A stretch of DNA of 42,138 nucleotides from a virus (lineage: Duplodnaviria > Heunggongvirae > Uroviricota > Caudoviricetes), in the IMG/VR virus record IMGVR_UViG_2526164691_000033, positions 1 through 42,138 of that record. The stretch is one strand, 5' to 3'. The position numbers and the translations under genes were made by a program. The notes beneath the pieces are model-generated. The model searched no databases, was not told the origin of the DNA, and saw nothing but the letters and a program-made list of their open reading frames with translations. This document shows, one piece after another, positions 6,809-6,972 of this stretch; position 1 is the stretch's first letter; every line of letters begins with the position of its first letter.

Positions 6809-6839
6809 GATTTGAAATTACCAAGAGGAGTGCTTATAT

Positions 6840-6854
6840 TTACCTTTGCGGTAA
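6840..6854. promoter_or_regulatory. operator motif TTACCTTTGCGGTAA inside 11-bp inverted-repeat arms
   Basis: Perfect TTACC-N5-GGTAA; flanked by AAGAGGAGTGC (6823-6833) and its reverse complement GCACTCCTCTT (6864-6874). Confidence 0.5.
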
Positions 6855-6938
6855 ATTTACATCGCACTCCTCTTGTGCCATAGTAATCGGGCACTGGCAA
6901 AATCCAGTGCCGGGATTGGCGTCCCGAGTTACTAAGTG

Positions 6939-6972
6939 GCGCATACCACGCCAGACGTGGTTTTTTTATGCG
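6939..6972 (+). terminator. rho-independent terminator
   Basis: CCACG-CCAGA-CGTGG followed by TTTTTTT, with outer GCGCATA/TATGCG pairing; preceded by hairpin GGCACTGG-CAAAAT-CCAGTGCC (6890-6911). Confidence 0.55.

Follow-up and report, generated by a model that had tools for sequence, protein, structure and literature searches.

The 42,138-nucleotide (nt) viral sequence IMGVR_UViG_2526164691_000033, analyzed over its full length and called the window below, is that of a phiV10/epsilon15-like temperate podovirus (Uetakevirus) of Escherichia coli. We studied the noncoding interval (6823-6972) in front of its antirepressor gene ant, where a preliminary description had noted an operator within a long inverted repeat, followed by a hairpin and an intrinsic terminator. 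Very probably, the interval belongs to an immI module of the P1/P7 type, composed of leader, C4 and ant, and comprises its control region and its first RNA; in this module, C4 would block ant translation and the leader would act as a decoy. The features described earlier are real and non-random, but they do not constitute a new attenuator.

Two known RNA families in front of ant

Rfam models were scanned permissively over 6300-7300, and at gathering thresholds over the whole window. Above threshold, the window matched only isrK, C4 and one tRNA. The isrK match (RF01394) covered model positions 1-77 of 77 at 6891-6967, with 67.2 bits (threshold 50), and the C4 match (RF01695) covered positions 1-87 of 87, with 66 bits (threshold 45). 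The leader is flanked by its own promoter just upstream and by a Rho-independent terminator at its 3' end, as in isrK, both being sequence predictions. Its minimum free energy (MFE) was -29.7 (z -2.87). The earlier suggestion that a small regulatory RNA takes part in ant control is supported by the isrK match, and by a and b recognition boxes that covary with C4 (see below).

All four elements noted earlier were recovered, with shifts of at most 1-2 nt. The inverted repeat has perfect arms of 12 base pairs (bp) rather than 11 (CAAGAGGAGTGC at 6822-6833, GCACTCCTCTTG at 6864-6875), and the operator reads TTACCTTTGCGGTAA at 6840-6854. The 8-bp hairpin (GGCACTGG/CCAGTGCC, 6890-6911) is present, its conserved stem being the 7 bp at 6891-6910. 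Scanning and folding both identified the terminator, with a stem at 6945-6961 and a T7 run to 6967. The distance of about 150 nt to ant also holds, with 157 nt from the end of the terminator to the ATG at 7124. The preliminary description had overlooked a second conserved hairpin (6911-6926) and the a/b boxes, and its interval excludes the key element, the C4 RNA at 6992-7075, which is located inside an open reading frame (ORF) that it had called spurious. With the C4 RNA and the recognition boxes, the leader is explained.

The leader carries exact copies of both targets of C4. Boxes a1 and a2 are both exactly TTGGCGT, the perfect complement of a' (ACGCCAA) in C4, and boxes b1 and b2 are both exactly CTAAGTGG, the perfect complement of b' (CCACTTAG). 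In the predicted C4 fold (MFE -43.6, with a 3' tail CCA after the closing stem), b' and a' are both exposed (Table 1). Predicted duplex energies are -11.6 kcal/mol for a'/a2 and -12.6 kcal/mol for b'/b2. An example mutation proposed for b' changes CCACTTAG to CCAGTTAG.

The isrK family (no clan) and the c4-a1b1 family (clan CL00128) match the same nucleotides in the window, in P1 (locus L014, 4218-4312) and in four other phages. From these overlaps, the two Rfam families appear to be one element described twice, with c4-a1b1 as the 5' part of IsrK.

Covariation of boxes and helices

A pattern scan of viral contigs found 120 loci, and 52 unique loci had a recognisable C4. In 44 of these 52, a C4 k-mer was complementary to both the leader and the ribosome-binding site region, at fixed relative positions. 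The boxes were diverse, with at least 11 a-box and at least 15 b-box variants. Each box varies in concert across its three copies among ten close relatives: TTGGTCT / AGACCAA / TTGGTCT replaces the a boxes in phiv142-3, Tyrion and KpST512, while the b boxes read CTAAAAGG / CCTTTTAG / CTAAAAGG in the phiV10 group and CTACAAAGG / CCTTTGTAG in Tyrion and KpST512. Because MAFFT misaligns the variable b boxes, this three-way covariation was measured alignment-free and not by column counts. Cognate pairs were more stable than non-cognate pairs, both for C4/leader duplexes (-31.6 versus -23.6 kcal/mol) and for C4/ribosome-binding site duplexes (-26.9 versus -21.6 kcal/mol), and the cognate mean stability was reached in none of 5000 permutations.

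The proposed helices are supported in the same way. In a 42-sequence alignment, 94.9% of cells were paired and 20 of 40 pairs showed compensatory changes; slid controls were 37-46% paired, and none of 500 shuffles reached the observed values. The hairpin 1 stem was paired in 100% of the 42 relatives (compensatory changes at 4/7 pairs), and the C4 closing stem in 98.5% (10/17 pairs compensatory). A lower stem that brackets the terminator hairpin and its U-tract, and is therefore only possible in read-through RNA, was 85.6% paired in the 42 sequences, with compensatory changes at 5/6 pairs, which argues for selection on both the terminated and the read-through isoforms. Family membership, architecture, the exact three-way complementarity with its covariation, and the RNA helices are established by these data.

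The same comparisons bear on the idea that the region encodes a small protein, either the 100-amino-acid (aa) ORF 6775-7077 or a peptide of the 'Ash family' or orf45 type, for which there are annotations in some relatives. The ZX5 record places a 37-aa 'ash family protein' over C4, and a Hafnia phage ORF over IsrK and C4 matches Pfam Phage_ASH. Yet conservation tracks RNA pairing and not codons, the ORF 6775-7077 has no Pfam match, and 1-2-nt indels among close relatives disrupt the frames. The earlier judgement that this ORF is spurious therefore stands, and a coding function is extremely improbable. The Hafnia case, phage yong2 (locus L006), is a 227-aa 'Ash family protein' ORF at 1288-1971 whose residues 68-161 (nt 1489-1771) match Phage_ASH (PF10554, 1.2e-12). 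The match spans IsrK (1501-1575) and C4 (1599-1685) and continues for about 85 nt past C4. As it coincides with the two RNA genes, the Phage_ASH protein family may be a translation of IsrK/C4 RNA genes.

Table 1. Coordinates of predicted and matched features at the leader-C4-ant locus of the window
Feature	Position	Strand	Remarks
Pa, upstream promoter-like site TTGAAA-17-TATATT	6812-6840	+	10/12 consensus matches; prediction
Inverted-repeat left arm CAAGAGGAGTGC	6822-6833	.	Perfect 12-bp repeat
Prophage-repressor operator TTACC-N5-GGTAA (predicted)	6840-6854	.	Centre about -44 from predicted leader start
Pb, predicted promoter of leader/C4/ant transcript	6856-6884	+	-35 TTTACA, 17-nt spacer, extended -10 TGcCATAGT
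Inverted-repeat right arm GCACTCCTCTTG	6864-6875	.	Within Pb spacer
IsrK-type leader small RNA (c4-a1b1 element plus terminator)	6891-6967	+	Rfam isrK, covariation
Hairpin 1	6891-6910	+	7-bp conserved stem
Hairpin 2	6911-6926	+	Box a1 TTGGCGT (6916-6922) in loop
Box b1 CTAAGTGG	6932-6939	+	After hairpin 2
Lower stem GCGCAU (6939-6944) / AUGCGU (6968-6973)	6939-6973	+	In MFE structure of long transcript
Intrinsic terminator	6945-6967	+	Stem 6945-6961 plus T7
C4 antisense RNA	6992-7075	+	Rfam RF01695 C4
C4 closing stem, 17 bp	6997-7013 / 7054-7070	+
b' CCACTTAG	7033-7040	+	Fills 9-nt hairpin loop in predicted C4 fold
a' ACGCCAA	7047-7053	+	7-nt single-stranded stretch in predicted C4 fold
Box a2 TTGGCGT	7078-7084	+	3 nt past Rfam C4 match end (7075); same position as P1 a2
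Hairpin GGUGGU / ACCACC presenting b2	7088-7123	+	About 85% paired across relatives, G-C to A-U changes
Box b2 CTAAGTGG	7105-7112	+	Overlaps ant Shine-Dalgarno GGAG (7111-7114)
ant, Bro-N antirepressor, 236 aa	7124-7834	+	Regulated gene; Pfam Bro-N 9.6e-20
Operator copies	3191, 6460, 6840, 7901, 25403, 28545, 28563, 33505, 33567, 35530, 35867, 35915, 36628, 36689		Motif scan of window

Promoters of the module and its genomic setting

A promoter with a -35 box, a 17-nt spacer and a -10 box was found directly 5' of hairpin 1 in 89 of 89 family members inspected, in unrelated genomic contexts. In the window this is Pb (TTGTGCCATAGT, invariant across ten relatives), which ends 6 nt before 6891; the predicted start at about 6891 coincides with position 1 of the Rfam isrK model. 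An additional upstream promoter-like site, Pa, was retained in the E. coli, Tyrion and KpST11 relatives and was missing from more distant loci that bear the operator.

Over 6360-7140, identity with the window is 98.7% for Escherichia phage HEMP4 and about 90% for phiV10, ZX5 and TL-2011b. The records of these four phages contain no RNA annotation at the locus, and that of phiV10 has a terminator only. Of 5426 complete E. coli genomes, 457 also carry the leader and C4, with no RNA annotated there. Epsilon15 has the small upstream gene (gp19) and lacks the whole leader-ant segment, from which we conclude that the leader-ant module is a mosaic insertion.

The preliminary description had offered, as an alternative, that hairpins and terminator are simply the 3' untranslated region and terminator of the upstream 85-aa gene (6551-6808), without any regulatory RNA. 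The terminator is indeed the first one on the plus strand downstream of this gene and may also stop read-through from it. However, the element has its own conserved promoter, its a1/b1 boxes covary with C4, and gene and element are found apart, the gene alone in epsilon15 and the module alone in P1, Stx/lambdoid, Yersinia and Hafnia phages. We therefore regard this alternative as very improbable.

Several arrangements at related loci were observed in passing. In TL-2011b (locus L012), an insert of about 1.1 kb (1971-3059, containing a minus-strand 'similar to hypothetical protein') separates the small gene from the operator; Pa and the left arm of the inverted repeat are replaced by it, and operator, Pb, leader, C4 and ant are intact. 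Three lambdoid-type loci on IMG/VR contigs (L091, L105, L115) have about 80 nt extra between the IsrK terminator and the C4 RNA. In many other IsrK-bearing contigs (e.g., L016, L020, L031), the downstream sequence was not recognised by a simple C4 pattern. Yersinia phage vB_YpM_41 (locus L007) has a full-length match to the ryfA RNA (163-461, 134.6 bits, minus strand) about 1 kb upstream of its IsrK/C4 pair.

The operator and the candidate repressor

The operator motif TTACC-N5-GGTAA is identical to the site marked 'repressor, lysogeny' in the epsilon15 GenBank record. Allowing at most one mismatch, we found 14 sites in the window versus 0.70 expected, a 20-fold enrichment, and none of 100 shuffles reached 14. 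These sites are scattered round the genome, recalling the dispersed C1 operators of P1. Pairs of them flank the gene (35985-36569) of a 194-aa protein that is likely the phage repressor; in Pfam, it shows an HTH_3 domain and, at its N-terminus, a weak match to a YdaS-like helix-turn-helix. The Pfam scan identified no recognisable self-cleaving protease domain in this protein.

At the leader, the operator is placed between the Pa -10 and the Pb -35, which fits the P1/P7-type arrangement of a repressor operator at the promoter(s), binding being predicted. The Pa -10 abuts the operator, so the predicted Pa start lies inside it. The operator adjoined the Pb-equivalent -35 in all epsilon15-like loci inspected, and this juxtaposition was kept across diverged loci, whereas Pa and the long inverted repeat were not.

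The inverted repeat itself is statistically real. Perfect 12-bp inverted repeats with a loop of at most 40 nt occur three times in the window versus 0.08 expected from 200 dinucleotide shuffles, and the segment 6810-6890, folded as RNA, has -27.1 kcal/mol (z = -5.9). The other two such repeats are at 25860-25895, just downstream of a tRNA gene (25740-25813), and at 1112-1139. Examined as a possible conserved RNA stem, the repeat proved weakly conserved: the outer 5 bp show uncompensated changes in HEMP4, phiv142-3, PH444 and L099, and the left arm is missing in TL-2011b, L037, L065, L078, KpST512, L126 and Tyrion, all of which keep the rest of the module. The arms were rejected as a second DNA motif at operators: the window has 4 copies of GGAGTGC versus 4.9 expected, none of them close to another operator. 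At the corresponding place, KpST11 and L130 carry other short repeats, and in phiV10 the inner 27 bp (two 11-bp arms and a 5-bp centre) are a perfect palindrome. The repeat is a lineage-specific, poorly conserved palindromic extension round the operator.

The small upstream gene deserves separate mention. A consensus LexA box (CTGTATATTTATACAG, 6514-6529), the sole one in the window, lies 22 nt 5' of the ATG of the 85-aa gene (6551) and about 40 nt 3' of the operator copy at 6460-6474. It is conserved in phiV10, ZX5, HEMP4, phiv142-3, PH444, TL-2011b, Tyrion and epsilon15, and was not found in two Klebsiella phages. This layout suggests that the gene may be SOS-inducible under dual control by LexA and the phage repressor. 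Its product has no Pfam family and shares 43% identity with residues 155-228 at the C-terminal end of Ant (74 aa, E 4e-16); it resembles a stand-alone C-terminal domain of Ant, and is possibly a LexA-controlled mini-antirepressor.

The operator covers the Pa start and is centred about -44 from Pb, a geometry that resembles lambda OR2 at PRM and would suit a two-way switch. The repressor might then shut Pa and spare or even stimulate Pb, so that the main repressor would license the antisense lock on its own antirepressor, and the LexA-boxed mini-antirepressor would give the SOS response a key of its own. Under this view, the inverted repeat could contribute an RNA or DNA structure, particular to the lineage, by which read-through from the SOS gene is coupled to the module. 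We put this forward as a doubtful proposal.

Comparison with known immunity systems

The closest parallel is P1/P7 immI. The curated P1 record gives the order C1 operator Oc4 (Op51), P2c4 (P51a), P1c4 (P51b), a1, b1, c4 RNA, a2, b2, icd and ant1/2, and the P1 scores at the equivalent places are 68.8 bits for C4, 51 bits for c4-a1b1 and a sub-threshold 35 bits for isrK. The parts in the window follow the same order on one strand, with a repressor operator at tandem promoters and with two upstream boxes repeated downstream of an RNA of about 77 nt that bears their complements. In both systems the product under control is an antirepressor, the downstream b box falls on a ribosome-binding site, and b1 is followed by a hairpin and a T-run. 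The box sequences differ (TTGGCGT / CTAAGTGG in the window, TTTGACA / GTTAGTG in P1), and the candidate HTH_3 repressor and palindromic operator of the window are unrelated to C1. Moreover, the window phage is an integrating epsilon15-like podovirus with an Ant that is a single Bro-N protein, whereas P1 is a plasmid prophage. The window also has no icd-like ORF (no ORF of at least 25 aa between C4 and ant, 7075-7124), and b2 consequently overlaps ant's own Shine-Dalgarno sequence.

The Gifsy-1 locus isrK-orf45/STnc1160-anrP is similar in that an isrK leader, which has a promoter and a terminator of its own, precedes a C4-type RNA and an antirepressor gene. At the Gifsy-1 locus, the short IsrK stops at its own terminator, and read-through yields a translationally silent mRNA for the antirepressor AnrP, which IsrK activates in trans (PMC4825925). 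Both IsrK and STnc1160 are expressed and abundant in Gifsy-1 lysogens (PMC7067206). Short and read-through isoforms would also exist in the window, as judged from the covarying lower stem confined to read-through RNA. IsrK residues G28 and G31 (activating mutations G28A, G31A) pair with the downstream C162 and C159 (PMC4825925); by their position in the sequence, we place both residues inside the a1 box. In contrast to Gifsy-1, the window has no adjacent antQ or isrJ, its promoter bears an epsilon15-type repressor operator, and its orf45 frame is cut to 14 codons, which makes translational coupling unlikely.

P4 immunity (CI RNA with seqA, seqB and seqC) shares with the window a processed small RNA flanked, on the same transcript, by complementary sequences. 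In P4, control is by premature transcription termination on the untranslated leader of replication genes, whereas the downstream target in the window is the ribosome-binding site of an antirepressor.

The preliminary description had pointed to P22 sar. This comparison holds for the outcome, since a small RNA represses antirepressor synthesis in both cases, and fails for the mechanism. The sar RNA is a true cis-antisense RNA made from the opposite strand within the mnt-arc-ant operon; here, C4 and leader share the strand of ant. A sar-like RNA from the minus strand across the ant leader would have the same target and a similar position upstream of ant. However, no promoter-like site was present on the minus strand in 6800-7130, all Rfam matches in 6300-7300 were on the plus strand, and no mnt or arc genes flank ant, so that the probability of such an RNA is vanishingly small.

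A model for ant control

From the arrangement of the locus, and by analogy with its relatives, we infer where transcription starts, how C4 is processed, that ant translation is occluded, that the leader is a decoy and how the repressor affects each promoter, as follows. Pb would start transcription at about 6891, and Pa, about 44 bp farther upstream, may add a second start. Most transcripts would end at the terminator (6945-6967), giving a 77-nt IsrK-like RNA with a1 in the hairpin 2 loop and b1 single-stranded after it, while read-through transcripts would include C4 (6996-7073) and ant. C4 would probably be excised from its precursor as in P1, where release requires RNase P, and its b' loop and single-stranded a' would pair with b2 and a2. 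Such pairing would keep ribosomes off ant and so protect the prophage repressor; given that b2 overlaps the ant Shine-Dalgarno sequence, Ant would then stay untranslated. Since the leader carries exact copies of both targets, it would be a rival for these C4 loops, either in cis as part of the precursor or, as the short RNA, in trans, and as a decoy would set the threshold of the lock. The terminator would restrict the amount of C4/ant transcript, and the operator, covering the Pa start and abutting the Pb -35, would bring the module under control of the prophage repressor.

Published data agree with parts of this model. The P1 c4 RNA represses Ant synthesis (PMC8546580). Overexpression of the ZX5 antirepressor, which lies at the same position behind the same leader, reduces lysogeny, with prophage titres down about 1000-fold (PMC9782041).

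The leader may, in addition, respond to C4 as in P4. C4 would then pair with a1/b1 on the nascent leader and raise termination at 6945-6967, which would make the leader a C4-responsive attenuator and not a decoy, a reading compatible with occlusion of ant by C4. Box b1 ends 5 nt before the terminator stem, and, as read from the sequence, a weak structure in place of the terminator could form between GGCG (6938-6941) and CGCC (6949-6952), which C4 on b1 would block. Hershko-Shalev et al. (2016, PMC4825925) also cite P4 SeqA as structurally homologous to IsrK. However, the anti-terminator pairing comprises just 4 bp and does not form in the predicted MFE structure, and the GGCGC segment is nearly invariant, so covariation is uninformative on this pairing. 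Co-expression of STnc1160 in Gifsy-1 left the IsrK effect undiminished (PMC4825925). We consider attenuation of this type possible, albeit not probable.

Activation as in Gifsy-1 would be a different mechanism. The read-through mRNA would be locked, the short leader would open in trans the ribosome-binding site of a small ORF at the C4 AUG (orf45), and Ant synthesis would depend entirely on translational coupling. Mutagenesis has demonstrated this mechanism at the homologous isrK-orf45(STnc1160)-anrP locus (PMC4825925), and the AUG at 6996 matches the first orf45 AUG (+107) by position. In the window, however, the ORF from this AUG has only 14 codons and ends within the b' loop at a TAG (7038-7040) that precedes the ant ATG by 83 nt. 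The length of this ORF is unconserved among relatives, ranging from 3 to more than 46 codons, with about half ending at codon 14-17, and P1 also has an early stop in the ORF from the C4 AUG. The position of b2 on ant's own Shine-Dalgarno sequence fits direct occlusion instead. Activation by coupling thus appears quite unlikely here, and with no icd and with a C4-AUG ORF of 14 codons and unconserved length, direct occlusion of the ant ribosome-binding site is the simplest reading.

Some points weigh against the model of a C4 lock with a leader decoy. The c4-a1b1 family (RF03163) matched over its full model (1-53, at 6878-6930) with 44.3 bits, just under the threshold of 46.7. Start sites, termination efficiency and C4 processing in this phage are predictions. 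In P1, ant transcription depends on translation of the intermediate ORF icd, and such a relay is absent in the window. If the repressor shuts both promoters in the lysogen, C4 would be relevant only during establishment or after partial derepression. Finally, the Gifsy-1 study reads IsrK as a translation activator acting via an upstream ORF and not by simple titration (PMC4825925), and in view of this different interpretation the exact role of the leader is unsettled even in its best-studied homologue.

The RNA families concerned are of long standing (Weinberg et al., 2010, PMC2864571; Rfam), and the locus is therefore an unannotated instance of an already known system. Points of modest interest are the layout without icd or orf45, the fusion of an epsilon15-type operator to an IsrK promoter, and the diversity of specificity boxes. 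The module would explain the silent antirepressor in phiV10/epsilon15-like E. coli phages, and two RNA genes replace ORF calls of the 'hypothetical' or 'Ash family' kind. The icd-less arrangement is the simplest c4 lock and would lend itself to telling apart the functions of decoy, attenuator and occlusion, which are still read differently for P1, P4 and Gifsy-1. The many box combinations imply combinatorial immI specificities among co-resident prophages, which bears on cross-induction and superinfection immunity.

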